55,630 nucleotides of DNA from a virus: IMG/VR virus record IMGVR_UViG_3300045988_032220; one strand, written 5' to 3'. The notes under the pieces were generated by a model. That model worked only from the letters and a program-made list of their open reading frames with translations, was not told the DNA's origin and did no database searches. The stretch's first letter is position 1. Every line of letters begins with the position of its first letter. Made by a program: the position numbers and the translations under genes. Positions 1,527-55,630 of this stretch are shown here, one piece after another.

Positions 1527-2783
1527 TTACTGGAATGCGCCGCTGATGGCTTCGATATAGCCGCCGGTGCCGGATGCACCGCGGCTGACGGAAACGCGGA
1601 AGTTGAACGCTGCGCCGTTGGTCGCCGTGCTGTTGGTGAACACAATGTTCACGCCCTTCTTGACTTCGACCGTTGCATCCTGCCAGACCGGCGACGGGTC
1701 GTTGGCGTTGTTCGTGACCTCGACCTTGAATGTGGCATCATCGGGGATGCTGCCGGTCACCTGCAAGACCGCCACGGTAATGTCACCGTCCACGGCCAGT
1801 GGGGTGGTCAGCGTCACGGTGGCGCTGGTAACGCTCTTGGTGAACGTAGCGCTGAGGCTGGTGCTTTCCTTGCCGTCGCTGGCCGTGATCTGGATGGTGT
1901 GGTTGCCGTTGAGGATGCGCCGGAAGCCGTCGGCGGTACTGCCCTGCCCGAAGGTCAGTGCAGTACCGCTTGCAACGCCGGTTCGGGTGGCGGTGGTCTT
2001 GCCGTCCAGCTTTTCGGTGACGGTCAGGGCATCGCCGTCGGCATCGGTAACGGTGTAGCCAAAGTTGAATGGCGCGTTCTTCTCTCCCAGATTCGTGGAG
2101 CTGGCGTTGATGGCCGGGGCAGTGTTGGTGCTGACCGTGCCGTCGTCAGAGACCACGAGTTCAGAGGGAAGTACAAAAGCGGGGCGAACACCGTAGGTGT
2201 AGTAGCAGTACCAGTAGTCGTTGGAACCATCAGACTTGACGCCCCAGACGGGGCTGCTGCTGCTGGTGTTCGGAGAGCGCAGCCACCATTCGGCAGCGCT
2301 GCTGCCGTTATAGGCGATACGCTTGCTGTTGCCGCCGGAGCCACTTCCGAAATAGTCCAGCTTTGCGCCATCTTTCGGGAAATAGCCGTTGTCGCTGGTC
2401 GTCCAGCCGACCTCGTAGCCAGACAGTAAGAACACTTTGGTGGAAAGACCATTCGCGCCAGTAGCAAGGCTGCCACCAGAGCCAGTGCCGTTCTGATACG
2501 GAATTTTCACCTGTTTGATTGCCGCCCGAATTTCGGAATCAACCAGATTATAGAAAGTGCTGTTCAGGTAGGAATGGATGCTGGAATCCTTATAGGAGTT
2601 GCTGTTACCGAACGTGCTAGTTGTGTAAATGTCCTTCATCACGACCCAGACACCGTTGCAGCTTGCATCATAGGCGCTGCTGGGCAAGCCCTGATGCACG
2701 ATGATGAAGTCTTTGGCCGCACCGTTGACCTTGATCTTGACGATACTGCCAACGGCCTTTGTGCTCAGTTTTACGTTTGCCAT
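1527..2783 (-). CDS. DGR target protein 1 (418 aa): N-terminal ligand-binding domain carrying VR1, followed by Ig-like/beta-rich C-terminal region
   Basis: Start ATG at 2783 is preceded by AAGGAGGTAACA; the ORF-track start at 2894 would overlap the RT. Contains VR1, encoding AAEWWLRSPNTSSSSPVWGVKSDGSNDYWYCYYTYGVRPA. Confidence 0.9.
   Translation of the reverse strand: MANVKLSTKAVGSIVKIKVNGAAKDFIIVHQGLPSSAYDASCNGVWVVMKDIYTTSTFGNSNSYKDSSIHSYLNSTFYNLVDSEIRAAIKQVKIPYQNGTGSGGSLATGANGLSTKVFLLSGYEVGWTTSDNGYFPKDGAKLDYFGSGSGGNSKRIAYNGSSAAEWWLRSPNTSSSSPVWGVKSDGSNDYWYCYYTYGVRPAFVLPSELVVSDDGTVSTNTAPAINASSTNLGEKNAPFNFGYTVTDADGDALTVTEKLDGKTTATRTGVASGTALTFGQGSTADGFRRILNGNHTIQITASDGKESTSLSATFTKSVTSATVTLTTPLAVDGDITVAVLQVTGSIPDDATFKVEVTNNANDPSPVWQDATVEVKKGVNIVFTNSTATNGAAFNFRVSVSRGASGTGGYIEAISGAFQ
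2178..2298 (-). repeat. DGR variable repeat VR1 (121 bp)
   Basis: Aligns without gaps to TR 4207-4327 (offset 2029). There are 12 mismatches, all at plus-strand T in TR (A on the coding strand). Confidence 0.93.
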
Positions 2784-2803
2784 TGTTACCTCCTTGCAAA
2801 AAA

Positions 2804-4033
2804 TCAGACCCACGGCAAAACGCCGATGGGCCTTGTATTCTGCGAGACGGCAACGGGCATAGCTTTGCGCTGCTTCTTGTAGATGCAGCGGCATTGCCGG
2901 GCGCGTCGCCGGTCTCGTGCGAGTTTATTCGAGTTGATTTTTCGGTGGATAGAAATTGTGCAGTTGAGCAATTTTTCCAGACGATCGGCGTACTGGCGGC
3001 GCAGTGCGTAGGTATCGCCGTGTGCAGCATGGGCATCCCATGCAAGGAAGCTACAAAGGATTTCTTCCTTTGTTACCTCACCCGCCGGGTATGCCTTTTC
3101 CCAATGCCTGATTTTGGCTTTCATCCGTTTGGCGCTGTCCCGACGCAGCTTTTGGACGACCGCGCCGGTTTCAGTCAGATACGAATGGAACCCCAGAAAA
3201 TCAATGCCGTTCCTCAGTGGGAAGATAGCCGTTTTCTGGTTCAGCTCCAAACCGTACTCGTCCATGAGCGCCCGCACATCCTTCAAGATGCACTGCAACT
3301 TCTGCTTGTCCGGGCAGATGATGTAAAAATCATCCATATACCGGCCATAGTATTTGATGCGGTACTTTTCTTTGATGATGTGGTCGAACTCATCCAAAAA
3401 CATGAGGGCGAAAAGCTGGCTGGTCTGATAACCCAGCGGCAGACCATCTTCCATCACGTCGATGTAGATGCAAAGCAGCTCGTAGATACGCGGGTCAACG
3501 CCGCGCTTGTCCAGAACCACCTTGAGCTTTCGTTTCAGCTTTTGGTGATTGATGCTGGCGAAGAAGTGCCGGACATCGCCTTTCAGCACCCAGCCGTCTG
3601 CGCCGCGCCCACTCCGGCTGTAGTAGTCCACCATGTGGGTTTTCAGGCGCATCAGGCCGTCGTCCGTGCCTTTGTCCTTCTGGCTGGCAAAGCTGTCCCG
3701 GATGAAGCTCTTGGTCAGGACTTCATACAGGATGTTATCTACCAGCGCGTGCAGCACCACTTTGTCCACGAATGCCGGTGCGTGTACAACGCGCTTCTTC
3801 GGCTCATAAACATAGAACACTTCAAAGCGGCTCGGCGTGTAGCATATCTGCTGCCGGATGTCCCCGCCCGGCTGCCGTACACTGCGGACGGCCAGCTTGC
3901 GGGACAGCTTTTCGGTACAGGCCAAAGCGCTGGCCTCATACTGGATCGTTTTGCTCTTACTGCGCTTTCCTTTTCGGGCTTCGAGGTACGCATTGTAAAG
4001 CGTCTCGAAGCTGCACAGTTCTTCGTATGTCAA
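2804..4033 (-). CDS. DGR-type reverse transcriptase (409 aa)
   Basis: YMDD box (YYGRYMDDFYII) and LGYQTSQ, which matches the (I/L)GxxxSQ signature typical of DGR RTs. Also IRDSFASQKDKGT. Located immediately downstream of TR. Confidence 0.95.
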   Translation of the reverse strand: MTYEELCSFETLYNAYLEARKGKRSKSKTIQYEASALACTEKLSRKLAVRSVRQPGGDIRQQICYTPSRFEVFYVYEPKKRVVHAPAFVDKVVLHALVDNILYEVLTKSFIRDSFASQKDKGTDDGLMRLKTHMVDYYSRSGRGADGWVLKGDVRHFFASINHQKLKRKLKVVLDKRGVDPRIYELLCIYIDVMEDGLPLGYQTSQLFALMFLDEFDHIIKEKYRIKYYGRYMDDFYIICPDKQKLQCILKDVRALMDEYGLELNQKTAIFPLRNGIDFLGFHSYLTETGAVVQKLRRDSAKRMKAKIRHWEKAYPAGEVTKEEILCSFLAWDAHAAHGDTYALRRQYADRLEKLLNCTISIHRKINSNKLARDRRRARQCRCIYKKQRKAMPVAVSQNTRPIGVLPWV

Positions 4034-4067
4034 ACTTGACCCTCCGCTGGTTCGCTGTTGCGGTAGT

Positions 4068-4137
4068 GGGCTGCATCCCCGCAGGGATGGCCCACCTCAG
4101 CGGGATGTGTTTATCACTTGCCTGCATCGGCAAGTGA
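4068..4137 (-). ncRNA. Structured TR-RT spacer of the DGR RNA (two strong hairpins)
   Basis: Perfect 9-bp stem tcacttgcc/ggcaagtga (4114-4122 / 4129-4137). Bulged 10-bp stem gggc..catccc/gggatg..gccc (4068-4093). Confidence 0.5.
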
Positions 4138-4206
4138 CGGGATACGGTTTCCTTTGGCTGTTGCACTGCTTTCGGCAAATGCCTACTCGTCTCGCAGATC
4201 AGCCGG

Positions 4207-4327
4207 AGCGGGGCGAACACCGTAGGTGTTGTTGTAGTTCCAGTTGTCGTTGGAACCATCAGACTTGACGTTCCAGACGTTGTTGCTGTTGTTGGTGTTC
4301 GGAGAGCGCAGCCACCATTCGGCAGCG
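4207..4327 (-). repeat. DGR template repeat TR (121 bp)
   Basis: Coding-strand translation AAEWWLRSPNTNNSNNVWNVKSDGSNDNWNYNNTYGVRPA with 11 AAC codons. It is the invariant partner of VR1 and VR2 and is not in a credible ORF. Confidence 0.93.
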
Positions 4328-4368
4328 TCAGAATATAAACCGTGCCCCTATTGCAAAACAGTTTCCTG

Positions 4369-4959
4369 TTATGCCGTTTTCTGCTCCTGCTGGGCAAAGA
4401 CGGCCCGAAGTGCTTTGACAAGCATTTCAAGCCGTTTCTTCTCTGCTTCCTGCCGGAGATTTTCTGCCCGGCCACGTTCAGACTTGAGCCACTTCATGGC
4501 CGGGTATTTTACATCCGTGATCTTCTTTGTCCAGATACCGGCTTTCTTGGTGCTGATGATACCATCCTCCGTGCAGAGGGTCAGATATTCTAGCAGCAGA
4601 GAACAGCCGTCCACGACCTCACCGATCTTTTCAATCCGCTTGTCGTACTCCGTGGCGAAGTTCACGTTGTTGGCCGCATGGGCATCCAGCAGAATCTTCT
4701 TAGCCGTTTCCCGGATGTCCCTGCCGTAGAGGTTGAAGGTGCTTTTCGTAAAGCCCTCTTTCTCCCTCACATCAAGGGCATGGACAGCGGTTGTGCAGAC
4801 CTGCTTCATTTCGCGGATGTCCTCAAGCGCAGCGGCTTTCTGAAATACCTTCCGGGCATCGCTCCGGCTGATGTCGTCCGAAACGATGCGGGTCGCCCTC
4901 TGGGTATACCTCAGCAGCTCCCGCGCTTTATTGCCAACCAGAAACGGTTGTTCAGCCAT
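4369..4959 (-). CDS. avd: Avd-like DGR accessory protein (196 aa, helical, basic C-terminus)
   Basis: Lies immediately upstream of TR on the same strand. Predicted helical with a basic tail (KWLKSERGRAENLRQEAEKKR). Larger than canonical Avd (about 120-130 aa). Confidence 0.55.
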   Translation of the reverse strand: MAEQPFLVGNKARELLRYTQRATRIVSDDISRSDARKVFQKAAALEDIREMKQVCTTAVHALDVREKEGFTKSTFNLYGRDIRETAKKILLDAHAANNVNFATEYDKRIEKIGEVVDGCSLLLEYLTLCTEDGIISTKKAGIWTKKITDVKYPAMKWLKSERGRAENLRQEAEKKRLEMLVKALRAVFAQQEQKTA

Positions 4960-31888: not shown

Positions 31889-32048
31889 CAGCTCGCAAGA
31901 TGGGATTTGAACAGCTCATCTTGCAATGATTTTACCAGTTTCCGCCGGTAAAGTCAAGCGGACACTTTGCAAGGGCTGCACCGCTCAACAAAGCAACCCA
32001 TGCCCACCACCCCGCCGGGGTGAATCAAAAACAAAGGAGATCGAGAAC

Positions 32049-40981: not shown

Positions 40982-41117
40982 CACTATCTTCCCTTCCTTC
41001 CCACACAGGGCAGCTATCTTCCGGGTCTGTGAAATCCGCCCGATGCTCAGAATTTCCATTGAAGCACACCCATGAAAAGTTATCATGCCATGCGCAGGTG
41101 AAACACTCTTTTTCCAT
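40962..41117 (-). CDS. Small Cys-rich protein (51 aa)
   Basis: Hand-translated MEKECFTCAWHDNFSWVCFNGNSEHRADFTDPEDSCPVWEGREDSDEKEEK. Its ATG overlaps the upstream stop (TGATG). Confidence 0.4.
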   Translation of the reverse strand: MEKECFTCAWHDNFSWVCFNGNSEHRADFTDPEDSCPVWEGREDSDEKEEK

Positions 41118-41581
41118 CACTCACGTTCCTCCCAGTTCCAGCAGGAAGCTTCCCGGCCTGTCACAGGCTGAGAATGATGTTTGTTGAAACACGTCCCGTC
41201 CCGCAAATGCCACCTGCAAAATTCACAGCTTTTGTGTAAAGTGACTTTTGCGCCGCACTCTGGGCAGTGCTTAAACGTGTACTCGCAAAGTTCTTTCTCC
41301 CCGTCGTCCGGGTCGATTTTGATTTGCTTCCAGTCCTCAACGTGAATGCCGCACTTGTGGCAAATAAATTCGTCGCAGTCTACGTAGTCCCGGTTCTCGT
41401 TGTATGTCAGCGGTTGCAGGCTCTCCGGGGCAATGGTCGGTTCGGCATTCAAACTGCCCTCGATCATCTGCACTACACTGGTTTTGATTTTCCCGTGTGT
41501 CAGCTCCCCTTTCAGTGCATACTCTATGTTCTTGAGCACCTGCATGAAATGGTTTGCATCAACCAGACGTTTTTCTTCCAT
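41117..41581 (-). CDS. Zinc-ribbon containing hypothetical protein (154 aa)
   Basis: CHKCG...CPECG...CEFC motifs. Confidence 0.6.
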   Translation of the reverse strand: MEEKRLVDANHFMQVLKNIEYALKGELTHGKIKTSVVQMIEGSLNAEPTIAPESLQPLTYNENRDYVDCDEFICHKCGIHVEDWKQIKIDPDDGEKELCEYTFKHCPECGAKVTLHKSCEFCRWHLRDGTCFNKHHSQPVTGREASCWNWEERE

Positions 41582-41804
41582 TTTCTTTTCCCGCTTTCTT
41601 TCTGGGCGTTCGCTTCTTCTTGGGCAAATCCGGTATTGTTACCACAACATCCCTTTGTTTCTCCATTTCCGCCGGGATTGCCTCAACCAGACTTTTGAAT
41701 TTTTGCAAGGTTTGAACCTCCGTCGCCGCGAAAATGAACTGCGCCAGTTCTTCCGGTGTTCCCTGCTGGACGGAATGACCGTCCGGGTATGTTGTGATCG
41801 TCAT
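41559..41804 (-). CDS. Hypothetical protein (81 aa)
   Basis: ORF in operon. Confidence 0.5.
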   Translation of the reverse strand: MTITTYPDGHSVQQGTPEELAQFIFAATEVQTLQKFKSLVEAIPAEMEKQRDVVVTIPDLPKKKRTPRKKAGKENGRKTSG

Positions 41805-42292
41805 TTTTCTTCGCCTTTCAGTTTCAGTTCCACTTTCGGCATGGGCTGATCCGAACGGTTCATCGGTTCATAGAAATCGACCCACTGTCCACCCTCCGGG
41901 AAGTCGTGCCACGCAAGCGCGTACCGGATCGTCAGCCAAACGGTTTCTGCTCTGTATGCTTCTTTCATGGTTGTGTCGATAGATGCAGGCGGAACATTCT
42001 GTCTCCAAAGTGCGTCCATGCCCTGCCGCATCTGGTTACGAAGCCGCATACACTTGAGAAAATCCGCTTCGTGGTCTTTATGAAACTGCTTTCGTTCTTC
42101 GGTCGTGTGACACTGCTTTTCCATCTTGTCCACATAATCCCAGCAGCAAACCTCATTGGTGAAGTCCTCAAACTGGCCCATGCGGAACCGGAGGTATTCT
42201 TCGCACGCCTGCTTCACGGCCTGTGCTGTCTCCCGGCTCATGGTGATGGTCACGGCCTCAACCTCTGCCGGGGTCTTATTTTTTGTTACCAT
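41801..42292 (-). CDS. Hypothetical protein (163 aa)
   Basis: ORF in operon. Confidence 0.6.
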   Translation of the reverse strand: MVTKNKTPAEVEAVTITMSRETAQAVKQACEEYLRFRMGQFEDFTNEVCCWDYVDKMEKQCHTTEERKQFHKDHEADFLKCMRLRNQMRQGMDALWRQNVPPASIDTTMKEAYRAETVWLTIRYALAWHDFPEGGQWVDFYEPMNRSDQPMPKVELKLKGEEK

Positions 42293-42301
42293 TCTGTCAC
42301 C

Positions 42302-42694
42302 TCAGCAAATCCTGACAGCCGGGGCACCGTAGCCATCCCGTACCAGAACCCCCTCTTTTTCCGTAAAAAACATTGTCGTCTTGAACGGAAAGTTTGCTCT
42401 GTCGATGCCAGCTTCGGCGGCAGCATCGGCCAGCATTTTGCACGGGCCGTAATCACTCCCGATGGAAAAGCCGAAAGTTTGAATGCTTTTCGCGTATTCC
42501 TCAATGCTTTTTGCCAATGCCGCCTTGAATGTGTTCAGCTGATCCAGCGTAACGCTCTGTCGCATCGTATCCGCAAGGAAGCACACTGCAACAGAGGTAA
42601 AGCTATCGTCTCCGTTGCTATGCGGCTGGTGATCCATCAGCTTTCCAGCCCACCAGCTGACTGCCTTTTCAATATCATCCTTTGCCAAAATCAT
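42302..42694 (-). CDS. Hypothetical protein (130 aa)
   Basis: ORF in operon. Confidence 0.6.
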   Translation of the reverse strand: MILAKDDIEKAVSWWAGKLMDHQPHSNGDDSFTSVAVCFLADTMRQSVTLDQLNTFKAALAKSIEEYAKSIQTFGFSIGSDYGPCKMLADAAAEAGIDRANFPFKTTMFFTEKEGVLVRDGYGAPAVRIC

Positions 42695-43077
42695 ACCTTT
42701 TCCCCGCCTTTCTTTTTCAGAGGTTCAGGCACCGTTTCATAATCCGGAACCTTGCCGCCCGGCCAGTCGTGCCGCTGGCTGCGTTCGTATTTCTTGACCA
42801 TTGCGGCCAGCTGAATAGCTTCCACCGCTGCGTGGATTGCCACATCATAAATGAGATTCAGGTGCTCCCGCTTCATGGGTTCGTTTCTCTTGACATCTCG
42901 CCACAGCCGGATTGTCAAGCCAAAGTGGAGCTTCCGCACCTCGTCTATCAGTTCGTCCAGTTCTTCCCGGATCACCGCATACCCTTCATGCGGACTTGCG
43001 AACATCCGAAAGCGGCGGTTTGCTGCCGCCAGCTCCTTCTTTGCCAGAGCACGGACATCTTTTGTGATAACGTCCAT
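42691..43077 (-). CDS. Hypothetical protein, possibly all-alpha MazG-like NTP pyrophosphohydrolase (128 aa)
   Basis: SPHEGYAVIREELDELIDEV resembles the MazG-type EExxE region. The resemblance is weak. Confidence 0.3.
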   Translation of the reverse strand: MDVITKDVRALAKKELAAANRRFRMFASPHEGYAVIREELDELIDEVRKLHFGLTIRLWRDVKRNEPMKREHLNLIYDVAIHAAVEAIQLAAMVKKYERSQRHDWPGGKVPDYETVPEPLKKKGGEKV

Positions 43078-43079
43078 GG

Positions 43080-43727
43080 TTATTCCTCCGCCCGGCTCTT
43101 GATTTCAGCCAGCAGATCATCCAATGGAACATCGGCGAGGCAAAACCCGGCTTCTCCTTCATCCTCGGTAGAGACCCAGAGTGTAGAGGGAAAGTACAAA
43201 GCGGGGCGAACACCGCAGGTGTTGTTGAAGTTCCAGAGGACGCTGGAACCATCAGACTTGACGAACCAGACGAGGCTGCTGCTGAGGGTGTTCGGAGAGC
43301 AATTCGGCGTACCGTAAGGCGTCGCCAACCACCACGGCGTATCTACCTTCGGGATCAGCCGCCAATACTTTCCATACTGACGCAGGGTCAACAGGCCGAT
43401 TCTGTATTCAACGGTTCCGTATTCGGTCTGTCCGGTTGTGTCCTGCAGGTCGATCTTGAACGGAATAAAAGTATCCAGCGGCGTACCCTTCTCGGTAAAC
43501 TCTGCCAGACAGTTACCCAGATACTTCATAACATCGCTCCGGCGCAGATCGTTGGGACACTCCGGGTCGTCACCATCACGGAACGGCATTTTCGTCCAAA
43601 TGTTCTTTGCCAGCACAAGGCAACCGTGTTCGTCTGCATCCAGCTTCACAAACTCCTTGCCCAGCGCCTTGAAGATTCCGCCGTTCTTCACATTGCCCAA
43701 TGTCGTGCTTTTCAAAATCTTGCTCAT
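43080..43727 (-). CDS. DGR target protein 2 (215 aa), early-region paralog of the VR-bearing domain
   Basis: Contains VR2, encoding SPNTLSSSLVWFVKSDGSSVLWNFNNTCGVRPA. Shares the WWL...GVRPA(L/F) scaffold with target 1. Confidence 0.85.
   Translation of the reverse strand: MSKILKSTTLGNVKNGGIFKALGKEFVKLDADEHGCLVLAKNIWTKMPFRDGDDPECPNDLRRSDVMKYLGNCLAEFTEKGTPLDTFIPFKIDLQDTTGQTEYGTVEYRIGLLTLRQYGKYWRLIPKVDTPWWLATPYGTPNCSPNTLSSSLVWFVKSDGSSVLWNFNNTCGVRPALYFPSTLWVSTEDEGEAGFCLADVPLDDLLAEIKSRAEE
43200..43300 (-). repeat. DGR variable repeat VR2 (101 bp, remote)
   Basis: Aligns without gaps to TR 4207-4307. There are 14 mismatches, all at plus-strand T in TR (A on the coding strand). Confidence 0.9.
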
Positions 43728-43745
43728 GGTCGTTTCTCCTTCTTA

Positions 43746-44387
43746 TTACTCCTGCTGCTCGGAATCCTTTTCGGCGTTCAAATCATCGAACGTCTGTTCC
43801 GATTCTTCCTGTTCACCGATGTGAGTTTCTGCCAGCATTGCAACCAGTTCTTGCAGCTTTGCTTCTGCGTAGTCCGGTACCGTATATGCCATAACGGCGG
43901 CTCGTACCCTCATGCCGTTCTTCACGACATAATAAACCGTTCCGTCGGTTTGTTTTCTCTGGTAATAGCGGATAAAACCGTTATTCTTAATTTCATCCTC
44001 CAGCGGCGCAAGGTGCGACTGACAGATAATGCCGACCATGTGGCGATCCTCGGTCACAAGCGGGATAAGGATTTCTCCACTGCAGTAAATACCGATGCCC
44101 AGTTTCTTCACTTCGACTTCATCCTTAATTGTGTCGTCAAGATTGAAACCCTGAAAATCAATTTTGTATGCACAGTCGAAGTCGTTGTAAACCACCTTTT
44201 CGATCATGGTATCCTCGCTGATTCCCAGCATAGCGCCCATCTGGTTGCGGTTCAGCGGACGCGGGAAACCGGTAGCGCAGTAAATCGCCGACGCAGTTCC
44301 AATGTAGAAATCATCACTCTCGTCGTTATGGAAAACATTGCAGACAAGCTGCCGCTTGACCATCTTTGTCAGCCCTGAAAGTTTCAT
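43746..44387 (-). CDS. Hypothetical protein (213 aa)
   Basis: ORF in operon. Confidence 0.6.
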   Translation of the reverse strand: MKLSGLTKMVKRQLVCNVFHNDESDDFYIGTASAIYCATGFPRPLNRNQMGAMLGISEDTMIEKVVYNDFDCAYKIDFQGFNLDDTIKDEVEVKKLGIGIYCSGEILIPLVTEDRHMVGIICQSHLAPLEDEIKNNGFIRYYQRKQTDGTVYYVVKNGMRVRAAVMAYTVPDYAEAKLQELVAMLAETHIGEQEESEQTFDDLNAEKDSEQQE

Positions 44388-44590
44388 CTTCTGACCACCT
44401 CCACGTCCGGTTTTTCCGTTTCCCTAAACCTCGGATAAAAGGTCATTGCGCACATCCGTGCCTCACGGAGTGCTGCATCTGAGCTTTTTGCGTCCAGCTT
44501 GTACGGTAGCTGCATCTTGTTTTTCGTGTAGCTGTCAATGCCGAACAGCATGATGCTGAACTTTGCCATTTTCTGCTCCTTTCTGCTCAT
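44384..44590 (-). CDS. Hypothetical protein (68 aa)
   Basis: ORF. RBS AGAAAGGAG lies upstream of the internal ATG MAKFS. Confidence 0.5.
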   Translation of the reverse strand: MSRKEQKMAKFSIMLFGIDSYTKNKMQLPYKLDAKSSDAALREARMCAMTFYPRFRETEKPDVEVVRR

Positions 44591-44647
44591 TTTCTTTCGG
44601 TGGGCACTTCCGGGCTTGAACCGGGCGGGGCCTATTCCCTATGCTCA

Positions 44648-44679
44648 TATAAAAAGGAGCCGCCGCTCTGGGCGGCTCC
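44648..44679 (-). terminator. Intrinsic terminator after the SPFH gene
   Basis: Minus strand reads GGAGCCGCC-CAGAGC-GGCGGCTCC (perfect 9-bp stem) followed by TTTTTATAT. Confidence 0.7.
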
Positions 44680-44685
44680 AAAAGA

Positions 44686-45621
44686 TCAGTTGATGCCGTT
44701 GATAATGGGGATGCTGTTACCGTCGCCAACATAGGCAGGCAGTTCACCGTTCCAGCGGGATTCCACGTCGGTGATCTTGTAGTATTCCAGCAGGTTGCTG
44801 TTCAGACTGTCGTTCAAGGCGCGGTTTGCTTCCGCCTTTTTCTCTGCAACGTACAACTCTGCGTCCGCTGCAACCTTAGACTTTTCCGCTTCCGCATTGG
44901 CTGCGATCAGGTCAGCGTCCGCCGTGGCCTGTGCTTCGACACGGCGCTTGTCGGCGTCAGTCTCGGCTTTTTCCTTTTCCTGCTGGGCCTTGACCTTTGC
45001 TTCCACCGCATCGGTAAAGGTATCAGTGAAGTCAAAATTGGTTACGCTGATATACTGCAGGTCGATGTTGTACTGTGCCAGCACTTCCCGCAGTTTCGTG
45101 TCCATCTGGGAAGCGACTGCATCCCGGTTAGAAATCAGGCTGCTTGCATCGTAGTGGGCAACTACAGCTTTCACCGTTTCAAGGATACGGGGAGTAATCA
45201 GGGTGTCCTCATACTTTTTGCCGACCTCTTTGTAGATGGTCATTGCATTTGCCTGATTGATCCGGTAGCCAACCGCCACACTGGTGGAGACTTCCTGAAT
45301 GTCAGAACTGAACGCTGACAAGTCCATGCTCATTTCCTGAACACGGTTATCCATCTTCACGATGGACTGCCACGGGGCCTTGAACACCACACCTGCGTCC
45401 TTCGTGCCATCCTCGACTTTGCCAAAGGTTGTGACGATGCCGGTATAACCGGTAGGAACATAGGACACACAGGAAATGCCGATAAAAATGACGGCCACCA
45501 CCGCCGGGATGATTGCAGCTCTTTTTGCATCATCCGAGAAAATCAGGACTGCCAGCGCAATCAGTGCAAACAGTGCGCCGATAATAAAAAGAATCATGTT
45601 TCCTCGCTTTCGCTCATGCAT
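44686..45621 (-). CDS. SPFH/band-7 (stomatin-prohibitin-like) membrane protein
   Basis: N-terminal TM segments, then YTGIVTTFGKVE...VFKAPWQSIVKMDNRVQ and a long Ala/Glu/Lys coiled coil. The start may be the internal ATG at 45597. Confidence 0.8.
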   Translation of the reverse strand: MHERKRGNMILFIIGALFALIALAVLIFSDDAKRAAIIPAVVAVIFIGISCVSYVPTGYTGIVTTFGKVEDGTKDAGVVFKAPWQSIVKMDNRVQEMSMDLSAFSSDIQEVSTSVAVGYRINQANAMTIYKEVGKKYEDTLITPRILETVKAVVAHYDASSLISNRDAVASQMDTKLREVLAQYNIDLQYISVTNFDFTDTFTDAVEAKVKAQQEKEKAETDADKRRVEAQATADADLIAANAEAEKSKVAADAELYVAEKKAEANRALNDSLNSNLLEYYKITDVESRWNGELPAYVGDGNSIPIINGIN

Positions 45622-53644: not shown

Positions 53645-55258
53645 ATGGCAAAAAGAAAATTCAACAAGGGCGGCGAGGTTCGGCTGGTCGCCTATTACAG
53701 ATACAGCGGCGGCAGCGGGCAGACTGAGCAATCCATTGAGGGCCAGCGCCGGGACTGCGAGACCTACGCCCGCCTGCACAATATGACCATCCAGAAAGAA
53801 TATGTGGATCGTCACATCAGCGGCAAGACCGATGATCGTGCGGCATTCCAACAAATGATTGCTGACAGCGACAAGGGCGCATTCGATATGGTAATCTGCT
53901 GGAAAACAGACCGCTTCGCCCGGAACCGCTATGATTCTGCCGTGTACAAGAAGCGCCTGCGCGACAACGGTGTTGAGATCGTCTACGCCGCTGAATCCAA
54001 CATTGCCGGTGCGGAAGGTATCATCATTGAGGGCGTGATGGAAGCGCTGGCCGAATACTACTCCGCCGAGCTGGCCGAGAAGATGCGCCGCGGCATGAGG
54101 GAAAGCGCTCTCAAAGGGCAAGCCATCAGCCGTTGCCGCGCCCTTGGCCTGAAAACGGACGAGCGCAAACGGTTCGTCATTGATGAAAAGACCGCACCCA
54201 CTGTGCGCTTTATCTTTGAGCATTACGCCGCCGGGGAATCTGCCATGTCTATTGTTGAACAGCTCAACACTAAAGGACTGCGCACCAGTCAGGGCAACCC
54301 CTTCAACAAGAGCAGCATTCCCCGGATCATCCAGAACGAAGCCTACCGCGGCGTGTATGTCAGTAAATCGTATGACGTGCGCATTGAAGGAGCCATTCCG
54401 GCCATTATCGACAATGAACTTTGGGAGAGGGCACAAACCATGTTGAAATTGAACCGTCAGCTCAAGGCAAAGAATGAACCGAAAGCGGACTATATCCTGT
54501 CCGGCAAGCTTTACTGTTCCTGCGGTTCCCTTATGCGCGGCATGAGCGGGCACAGTGCCACCGGCGAGGTCTACCGCTACTACACCTGCCCCAACAAGGA
54601 CTGCCGCCTGCGGAACATCCCGAAGGACGATCTGGAAGGAAAAGTCATGCAGTCCATCGTGGATCACCTCTTGCAGCCGGAATCTATGGAAGCACTGGCC
54701 GAAGCTATGGTCGAGGTGCAAAAGGCCGACGCTGAAAAGCCCAATGCCGAACGTGTAGCCATCGAACAGAGCCTTGCCGATGTCCGCCGCCGCAGTAAAA
54801 ACATTTTGGACGCCATTGAAAACGGCACCGCCAATGCGCAGCTGTGTGCCCGTCTGGATGATCTGACCGAACAGGAGCAGACCTTGAGCTTCCAGCTTTC
54901 TTCTCTGGAAAAGGAGAAGCCTGTTGTGTTCACAAAAGAGCAGTACCTTTTCCTGCTGGAACAGTTCTTGATGGAGCCGTCCGAGCGCACACCGGAGTAT
55001 GGTCGCCGTCTTGTTAACACTTTCGTAACAAGTATGGTAGTTAGCGACCGTGAACTGGTTATCAATTTTAATGTTTCTGACGAAACCGTTAACAAAAACA
55101 AAAAAACATCCCAGACAAACTTACAAAAAGAAAGTTCGTCTGGGATGCGTCTGGTCCACCTTGCACATCAACAAGCGAACTATTCCCTTTATGCGGCTTC
55201 CGGCTACTTTTCACTGGTTGAACACCAATTTTCGGCCCGTTTGTGGCGCACCGCATAA
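53645..55258 (+). CDS. int: Large serine recombinase (integrase)
   Basis: N-terminal resolvase catalytic region VAYYRYSGGSGQTEQSIEGQRRD. Also a recombinase domain, a zinc ribbon (CSCGS...YYTCPNKDC) and a coiled coil. Confidence 0.9.
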   Translation: MAKRKFNKGGEVRLVAYYRYSGGSGQTEQSIEGQRRDCETYARLHNMTIQKEYVDRHISGKTDDRAAFQQMIADSDKGAFDMVICWKTDRFARNRYDSAVYKKRLRDNGVEIVYAAESNIAGAEGIIIEGVMEALAEYYSAELAEKMRRGMRESALKGQAISRCRALGLKTDERKRFVIDEKTAPTVRFIFEHYAAGESAMSIVEQLNTKGLRTSQGNPFNKSSIPRIIQNEAYRGVYVSKSYDVRIEGAIPAIIDNELWERAQTMLKLNRQLKAKNEPKADYILSGKLYCSCGSLMRGMSGHSATGEVYRYYTCPNKDCRLRNIPKDDLEGKVMQSIVDHLLQPESMEALAEAMVEVQKADAEKPNAERVAIEQSLADVRRRSKNILDAIENGTANAQLCARLDDLTEQEQTLSFQLSSLEKEKPVVFTKEQYLFLLEQFLMEPSERTPEYGRRLVNTFVTSMVVSDRELVINFNVSDETVNKNKKTSQTNLQKESSSGMRLVHLAHQQANYSLYAASGYFSLVEHQFSARLWRTA

Positions 55259-55341: not shown

Positions 55342-55630
55342 TTAGTGGAGATACCTTGCCAATTCAGATGCAACAAAGCCTGCGATCACTGCCGCAATGA
55401 CTGCCCACCAGAGTTTGTTTCCAAATACTCCGGGGGCTTTTTCCAGCGCGGTCAAGCGGTCGTCCTGCTTCTTGTTCTGTGCCGTCACAACTTCAAGGCT
55501 CCGGTTTGTGGTTTCGAGTTGCTGGATGGTCAACTTGATATTGGTGTTCATGCCGTTTACTGCATCGGTCAGCTTCCCCAGCTCGTCCAGCCGGTGGGTG
55601 TTGCTCTGTGCACGGTTTTCGACCGCTGTC
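55342..55630 (-). CDS. XhlA-like lysis-associated membrane protein (C-terminal 95 codons in this copy; 5' end continues at 82-110 after circularisation)
   Basis: Coiled-coil N-terminal half and a C-terminal TM segment (LWWAVIAAVIAGFVASELA). Lies downstream of the holin, like PBSX xhlA-xhlB-xlyA-type cassettes. Confidence 0.6.
   Translation of the reverse strand, partial: TAVENRAQSNTHRLDELGKLTDAVNGMNTNIKLTIQQLETTNRSLEVVTAQNKKQDDRLTALEKAPGVFGNKLWWAVIAAVIAGFVASELARYLH
55550..55630. repeat. Right copy of 81-bp terminal direct repeat (identical to 1-81)
   Basis: Same as above; an ORF reads in frame through the junction. Confidence 0.95.

Follow-up and report, generated by a model that had tools for sequence, protein, structure and literature searches.

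A diversity-generating retroelement with one template and two probable targets in a Toutatisvirus-like Faecalibacterium phage genome

We analysed IMG/VR virus record IMGVR_UViG_3300045988_032220, a stretch of 55,630 nucleotides (nt) called the window throughout, and conclude with high confidence that a temperate Toutatisvirus-like Faecalibacterium phage here carries a complete diversity-generating retroelement (DGR) in which one template serves two targets. The components of the element are intact: an avd-like accessory gene, a template repeat (TR), a structured spacer, a reverse transcriptase (RT) gene and two target genes, each with a variable repeat (VR1 and VR2). TR and the VRs differ only at TR adenines, TR is conserved among relatives while the VRs vary, and the structure of the spacer is conserved. 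The minus strand carries all four genes as well as the two VRs, and the cassette runs in the order avd, TR, RT, target 1. The original prediction had described a complete DGR within 1527-4959; the components it named are present there, but the second target, with VR2, lies outside that interval. The features are as follows.

4369-4959, minus strand: avd-like gene, 196 amino acids (aa), matching phrog_3206 'Avd protein of DGR' at E 1.3e-30
4207-4327, minus strand: TR, non-coding, with 33 adenines and 11 AAC codons in the VR frame
4034-4206, minus strand: structured spacer RNA between TR and RT, 173 nt, with helices at about 4156-4204, 4113-4138 and 4065-4096 and an invariant CAAAGG at about 4151-4156
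2804-4033, minus strand: DGR reverse transcriptase, 409 aa, TTG start, with LGYQTSQ and YMDD motifs
1527-2783, minus strand: target 1, 418 aa, an N-terminal DUF6273 domain containing VR1 and then two predicted beta-sandwich (Ig/PKD/FN3-like) domains, a 'tentaclin' architecture
2178-2298, minus strand: VR1, residues 162-202 of target 1, with 12 of 12 TR mismatches at TR adenines
43080-43727, minus strand: target 2, 215 aa, weakly similar to DUF6273, in an early/regulatory gene block, matching phrog_9958 at E 4e-78
43200-43300, minus strand: VR2, 101 nt corresponding to the 3' 101 nt of TR, residues 143-176 of target 2

A repeat search of the first 8 kb returned one long direct repeat, 2178-2298 against 4207-4327, which is 121 nt long, ungapped and 90% identical. 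Aligned base by base on the coding strand, TR and VR1 show 12 mismatches, no gaps and no mismatch at a base other than adenine: at every site the upstream copy on the minus strand (TR) carries adenine and the downstream copy (VR1) another base. On the plus strand these sites are the T residues at 4230, 4233, 4235, 4239, 4245, 4271, 4272, 4280, 4281, 4283, 4289 and 4292. With 33 adenines among the 121 nt of TR, the probability that 12 of 12 random mismatches would fall on adenine is P = 3.0e-8. The length of the repeat, its gapless alignment and the restriction of mismatches to adenine had all been predicted, and both the repeat search and the realignment confirm them, with the listed positions matching exactly and zero non-adenine substitutions.

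The TR translates in frame as AAEWWLRSPNTNNSNNVWNVKSDGSNDNWNYNNTYGVRPA, and this translation and the count of AAC codons agree with what had been read from the sequence beforehand. Its adenines fall 15 times in the first codon position, 17 times in the second and once in the third. Because they stand almost entirely in positions 1 and 2, 11 times as AAC, the TR adenines allow about 1e19 protein variants with a single codon at risk of becoming a stop. That codon is AAG at 4264-4266 (Lys183 of target 1), the only one in the window TR that adenine mutagenesis can convert to a stop (TAG); in the Toutatis-type TR the corresponding codon is AAC. With a TAG in frame 8 codons before it, the TR itself is untranslated. 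Annotations of relatives show the non-coding TR as a 50-aa 'DUF6273 domain-containing protein' (FP_Toutatis gp80, L001 5526-5678), and some gene callers fuse avd and TR into 256-aa proteins with a PF19789 match (P0061, P0066). Because the TR mimics target coding sequence, such TR-derived protein annotations are artefacts.

VR2 was found by sensitive blastn and tblastn searches with TR and target 1 against the whole window, and the same searches gave no VR besides VR1 and VR2. All 14 of its mismatches to TR are at TR adenines (P = 5e-9), of which the aligned stretch contains 31. The sequence just downstream is alike in the two VRs (FVLPSELVV and LYFPSTLWV) and unlike the TR flank, and for this reason the homology boundary at ...GGTGTTCGCCCCGCT is taken as common to VR1 and VR2. 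The distance between VR2 and TR is about 16.5 kb, counted across the junction of the circular genome.

The predicted RT motifs, YMDD and an LGYQTSQ variant typical of DGR RTs, are both present in the open reading frame (ORF), in keeping with the DGR motif class (I/L/V)GxxxSQ plus YxDD. The protein matches RVT_1 at E 7e-19 and phrog_1423 at E 1.5e-122. Its best sequence match in the PDB is 8ub7_A (E 2.6e-26), ahead of Cas6-RT-Cas1, retron-type and group II RTs at 1e-8 to 1e-6, with the group II intron enzymes at about 1e-7; we identified 8ub7_A as the Brt of Bordetella phage BPP-1 through its 100% identity to BPP-1 brt. Aligned pairwise, the window RT and the BPP-1 protein (bRT) share 29% identity over 343 residues (E 2e-34), with LPLGYQTSQLFA opposite IPIGSLTSQLFA and the YMDD boxes opposite each other. 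The closest solved relative of the RT is thus a DGR enzyme.

These data bear directly on the simplest competing explanation, an ordinary duplication or gene-conversion tract that happens to lie beside an unrelated RT of the group II intron, retron or defence type. Weak partial matches of the RT to NCBIfam group II, retron and DRT models are what could be said for it. The scores against the NCBIfam group II intron maturase, retron, Abi and DRT models are all far below cut-off, for example 95.7 bits against a cut-off of 300 for TIGR04416 (group II) and 49 against 235 for retron St85. The cassette contains no maturase or intron RNA, and an Rfam scan returned no family in it, the spacer included. 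An unrelated RT would also leave unexplained an adenine-only pattern that occurs at both VR loci and recurs in the relatives described below. Adenine specificity and the affinity to bRT refute this explanation, whose probability we regard as practically nil, and the predicted exclusion of a group II or retron RT is borne out as far as sequence searches and family models can decide it.

The diversification of the repeats was then followed across relatives. Scanning IMG/VR for matches to the RT gave 268 relatives, from which 80 loci were kept; TR and VR1 were counted in the 54 loci in which both repeats are complete (51 from IMG/VR and 3 GenBank phage records, the window included). These 54 loci have 7 distinct TRs and 54 distinct VR1s, and their TR-VR1 mismatches number 858 at TR adenines against 19 elsewhere. 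The adenine-site spectrum is skewed, with 566 A>G (66%), 239 A>T (28%) and 53 A>C (6%) changes; the skew could stem from a bias in what the RT misincorporates, from selection acting on the encoded residues (Ser, Gly, Asp, Tyr), or from the two together. Among the 6 genomes that carry the exact TR of the window, VR1 is variable at 27 of 33 adenine columns and at 1 of 88 other columns. Five of these are viral loci other than the window, all with different VR1s and with a neighbouring spacer that is 98-99% identical; an identical TR and near-identical flanks beside different VR1s therefore imply recent activity in this sub-lineage.

VR2 behaves in the same way. It is distinct in 24 of 24 related loci, with 318 differences from TR at adenine sites and 17 at other sites, and the non-adenine positions of each VR2 track either the window-type or the Toutatis-type TR, as would be expected if VRs are repeatedly overwritten from their cognate TR. 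At the protein level, among the 120 natural homologues listed for each target, mean column entropy is 1.20 bits inside VR1 against 0.23 outside for target 1, and 1.34 bits inside VR2 against 0.11 outside for target 2. Taken together, these comparisons between genomes show a lineage whose DGR is active now or was so recently.

The spacer between TR and RT provides a further conserved component. RNAalifold on 10 distinct relatives gave 38 pairs in 7 helices, with 97.4% of cells paired and compensatory double changes in 15 pairs. Sliding the pairing partners by 1-3 columns reduced the compensatory pairs to 0-2, and the observed values were reached in 0 of 500 shuffles. The structure of the spacer RNA is conserved and supported by covariation. 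The 173 nt of the spacer are retained across clades, down to RTs at 67% identity, and the invariant CAAAGG follows the first spacer helix. The BPP-1 spacer acts as a scaffold for the bRT-Avd complex and provides the adenosine used for priming (PMC6182149; bioRxiv 10.1101/2023.10.23.563531), and by analogy we infer that the spacer RNA here may have the same scaffold and priming role.

The avd-like gene beside TR was also part of the original prediction. Cornuault et al. had detected no Avd in Toutatis (PMC5883640). In the window the assignment is corroborated by two observations: authentic BPP-1 Avd matches the same phrog_3206 (E 8.8e-29), and the AlphaFold 2 (AF2) model of the window protein is an all-helical bundle, with a predicted local distance difference test score (pLDDT) of 74.6. 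The best fold matches of this model are 2rld and 2gsc (probability 1.0, target template modelling (TM) score up to 0.85, with weak E of 0.1-0.4), which we take to be four-helix bundles of the 23S-rRNA-intervening-sequence type, the family that includes Avd.

Several observations weigh against the conclusion of a complete and working DGR, or narrow it. The accessory protein has no Pfam or NCBIfam match, a PDB sequence search was negative both with the single sequence and with a 17-sequence profile, and hhalign of its profile against bAvd was likewise negative, with a homologue set too shallow for the purpose (effective number of sequences, Neff, 1.6). With that caveat we accept the 196-aa protein, about 70 residues longer than bAvd, as an Avd homologue on the strength of the shared PHROG profile and, more weakly, of a generic helical fold. 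At the repeats, TR and VR1 are identical over their 3' 24 nt, ending in GC-rich CGCCCCGCT, and because these 3' ends are identical there are no differences of the initiation of mutagenic homing (IMH/IMH*) kind. No hairpin or cruciform of the BPP-1 type was found 3' of VR1 or VR2 that surpasses shuffled sequence (fold z-scores +1.6 and +0.5). A 3' hairpin and an IMH/IMH* difference are traits of BPP-1 and do not define DGRs generally. The C-type-lectin fold of DUF6273 comes from published models, and our own model has pLDDT <50 in that region. As to activity, the comparison made here is one between genomes rather than within a sample, and it concerns the lineage rather than this genome at the time of sampling. 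Reads of the cultured relative Lelie show no peak of VR variation, as reported by Gulyaeva et al. (PMC11792537).

The last two points lead to a second alternative, in which the cassette of the window genome is a fossil: the VRs would have been diversified in an ancestor, and the element would now be silent or conditionally inactive. Besides the lack of VR variation in the reads of Lelie, Toutatisvirus genomes that keep both targets and have no DGR, described by Egorov et al. (bioRxiv 10.1101/2024.10.15.618418), fit such a history. It is harder to square with an RT, avd, TR and spacer that are all intact in the window, with the catalytic motifs present, and with the five contigs that share the window TR and nearly identical flanks and differ in every VR1. 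We consider a fossil cassette unlikely and retain the reading of a DGR that is at work in this lineage or was so until recently.

Target 1 most likely starts at the ATG at 2783, which is preceded by AGGAGG and agrees with the gene call of an ENA assembly and with the Toutatis gene model; the longest ORF begins at 2894 and would overlap the RT gene. The exact protein is also found on a 56.8-kb ENA metagenome scaffold; the source metagenome corresponds to ENA assembly ERZ28661269 (sample SAMEA3664649). PF19789 (DUF6273) matches residues 43-207 at E 1.6e-36, so that VR1 falls where DUF6273 ends on its C-terminal side and near the middle of target 1, not at the 3' end of the gene. The AF2 model, made from a 46-sequence alignment that mixes large and small targets, has a mean pLDDT of 61, falling below 50 over residues 122-198 (the DUF6273/VR region), and shows beta-sandwich segments at residues 224-316 and 336-417. 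Foldseek searches with the C-terminal half gave PKD/FN3 (Ig-like) matches at target TM scores of 0.6-0.7 and E of 2e-3 to 2e-2; no other part of the model was recovered by Foldseek. We therefore place predicted Ig-like domains C-terminal to DUF6273 with moderate confidence. An hhalign comparison of the target 1 profile with Mtd found no similarity.

What target 1 does on the virion can be read in two ways. It may be a receptor-binding protein of the tail, or it may be a Hoc-like capsid decoration, a mucus or glycan adhesin through which the DGR would tune retention of virions in the gut and not host range. The second is possible, although we find it the doubtful one. It draws on the match of the C-terminal half of target 1 to phrog_10993 'Hoc-like head decoration' (E 6e-130) and on the Ig/PKD/FN3-like domains of that half, and it has been discussed by Cornuault et al. 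(PMC5883640) and Baykov et al. (PMC10743442). The gene lies, however, between tail-fibre-like genes and the lysis cassette; the sole solved sequence relative, PDB 31he, is named 'Tail fiber protein' (residues 176-339, E 2.3e-6, profile search); and T4 Hoc has no N-terminal lectin domain (PMC10743442).

Target 2 weakly matches DUF6273-type PHROGs and is 32-36% identical to target 1 in a joint alignment. PF19789 is precomputed for 3 of 120 listed homologues of target 2, an NCBIfam scan of the window's own protein gave no match, and Pfam matches to DUF6273 have been published for the small target of Lelie (PMC11792537). From the homologues, the alignment to target 1 and the published Lelie matches, target 2 appears to be weakly DUF6273-like. 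The genes near it (41117-45621) are small, of unknown or regulatory function and non-structural, and include one PHROG transcriptional regulator and one prohibitin/stomatin-like membrane protein. No N-terminal hydrophobic signal or signal peptide is visible by eye in target 2. It is conceivable, though in our judgement quite improbable, that target 2 is a non-virion protein: a lectin-like binder that acts inside the cell or is expressed in lysogens, such as an adaptable factor involved in anti-defence or superinfection, diversified alongside the virion adhesin.

The following mechanism would account for the arrangement, by analogy with BPP-1 for its RNA intermediate, its priming from the spacer, its homing step and the ligand-binding role of the targets. 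A transcript that runs from the 3' end of avd through TR and the structured spacer would be bound by an RT-Avd complex. The RT would copy TR into cDNA faithfully except for misincorporation opposite adenines, and this cDNA would replace a homologous VR through mutagenic retrohoming. Retrohoming would take place at VR1, 2 kb downstream in the tentaclin-like gene, and also at VR2 in the small DUF6273-related gene on the far side of the circular genome's junction. The outcome would be continual variation of the probable ligand-binding face of two C-type-lectin-like domains, which most plausibly serve adsorption to host or gut surfaces.

The cassette has close published counterparts. Cornuault et al. 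(2018) gave TR/VR pairs for Toutatis (PMC5883640); Baykov et al. (2023) placed the FP_Toutatis group among tentaclin-carrying phages (PMC10743442); Gulyaeva et al. (2024) described two VRs and DUF6273 targets in Lelie (PMC11792537); and Egorov et al. (2024), using iLund4u on 173 Toutatisvirus genomes, reported Avd, TR, RT and a 'Hoc-like' VR1 gene, with another VR in a core DUF6273 gene at a distance of about 17.5 kb (bioRxiv 10.1101/2024.10.15.618418). At least four earlier descriptions of the system exist; the last two of these reports cover both targets, and the first two cover part of it. The Toutatisvirus DGR (FP_Toutatis, Lelie and the 173-genome cluster) shares with the window the order avd, TR, RT, DUF6273-plus-Ig target, the position between the tail genes and the lysis/integrase end, a 409-aa RT, and a second VR in a small DUF6273-related core gene about 17 kb away. 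The window cassette differs from those of Toutatis and Lelie in having about 80% nt identity to them and a TR that differs at about 15% of positions; the window-type TR is also found in MT835569 and several IMG/VR contigs. On these sequence comparisons, the window cassette is best described as an allelic variant of the Toutatisvirus system.

Comparison with BPP-1 and with other tentaclins shows which features are shared more widely. The BPP-1 DGR (mtd-avd-TR-brt) resembles that of the window in its homologous RT, its accessory protein of the same PHROG, a TR lying between avd and RT, adenine-only mismatches, an AAC-rich TR and a structured spacer downstream of TR. In contrast to BPP-1, the window has its cassette target downstream of RT and not upstream of avd, has two targets of which one is remote, and has no hairpin after its VRs. 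The variable domain of target 1 is N-terminal and followed by Ig-like domains, in a protein with no detectable similarity to Mtd, and the Avd-like protein has 196 aa against 128 aa in BPP-1 Avd. The tentaclins nd4 and nd12 of Baykov et al. (2023) are alike in having an N-terminal DUF6273 (C-type-lectin-like) domain with the VR and then Ig-like domains, and in being paired with a second, small DUF6273-only target; they have 569-579 aa against the 418 aa of target 1, and three beta-sandwich domains against about two. The original prediction had contrasted the order avd-TR-RT-target with the BPP-1 order of mtd/VR, avd, TR, brt, and on the minus strand the contrast is correct. The significance that it implied is overstated: a target downstream of RT, and the Toutatisvirus cassette as a whole, had already been published (PMC5883640; PMC10743442; bioRxiv 10.1101/2024.10.15.618418; PMC11792537), and a gene order other than that of BPP-1 is not unusual.

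Blastn of the window ends revealed one further feature.

1-81 and 55550-55630, no strand assigned: terminal overlap with 81/81 identity

Because these 81-nt ends are identical, the window represents a complete genome, either circular or with terminal redundancy, of about 55.5 kb. It has no host flanks, and its break point falls inside the lysis-cassette region. The DGR cassette is followed downstream by a peptidase_M15 endolysin (517-939) and small genes of the lysis cassette, and upstream of it are tail-fibre-like genes; the matches of these flanking genes agree with the position that had been predicted. The cassette shares 95% identity with MT835569, a scaffold without annotation, and about 80% with FP_Toutatis and phage Lelie. 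Over 72% of the window segment 31000-55630, identity to FP_Toutatis is 96%. This similarity of the right half, together with a DGR/lysis region that is syntenic at 80% identity, indicates membership of the genus Toutatisvirus.

A 537-aa ORF at 53645-55258 (plus strand) is placed like the large serine recombinase (integrase) of FP_Toutatis and Lelie and is, by position only, consistent with a temperate lifestyle. Elsewhere in the window, seven copies of the Rfam RAGATH-5 motif (RF02685, typed as a ribozyme) occur between 31958 and 36346 on the plus strand, at 31958, 32462, 33092, 33653, 34675, 35281 and 36293, with a spacing of about 0.5-1.6 kb and scores of 58-69 bits (gathering threshold 50). 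AT skew is reversed in this region and suggests genes on the plus strand.

As a discovery the element carries little weight, since DGRs are common in gut phages. Its value lies in annotation: it marks two hypervariable stretches that will break up assemblies and make strains appear more diverse than they are, it adds a second TR allele for the genus Toutatisvirus, and it supplies a covariation-supported model of a spacer RNA that has no Rfam family. The role of the small remote target in its non-structural block is the one loose end with some potential: if target 2 were indeed a non-virion binder, a DGR acting on a non-structural phage function would be new.

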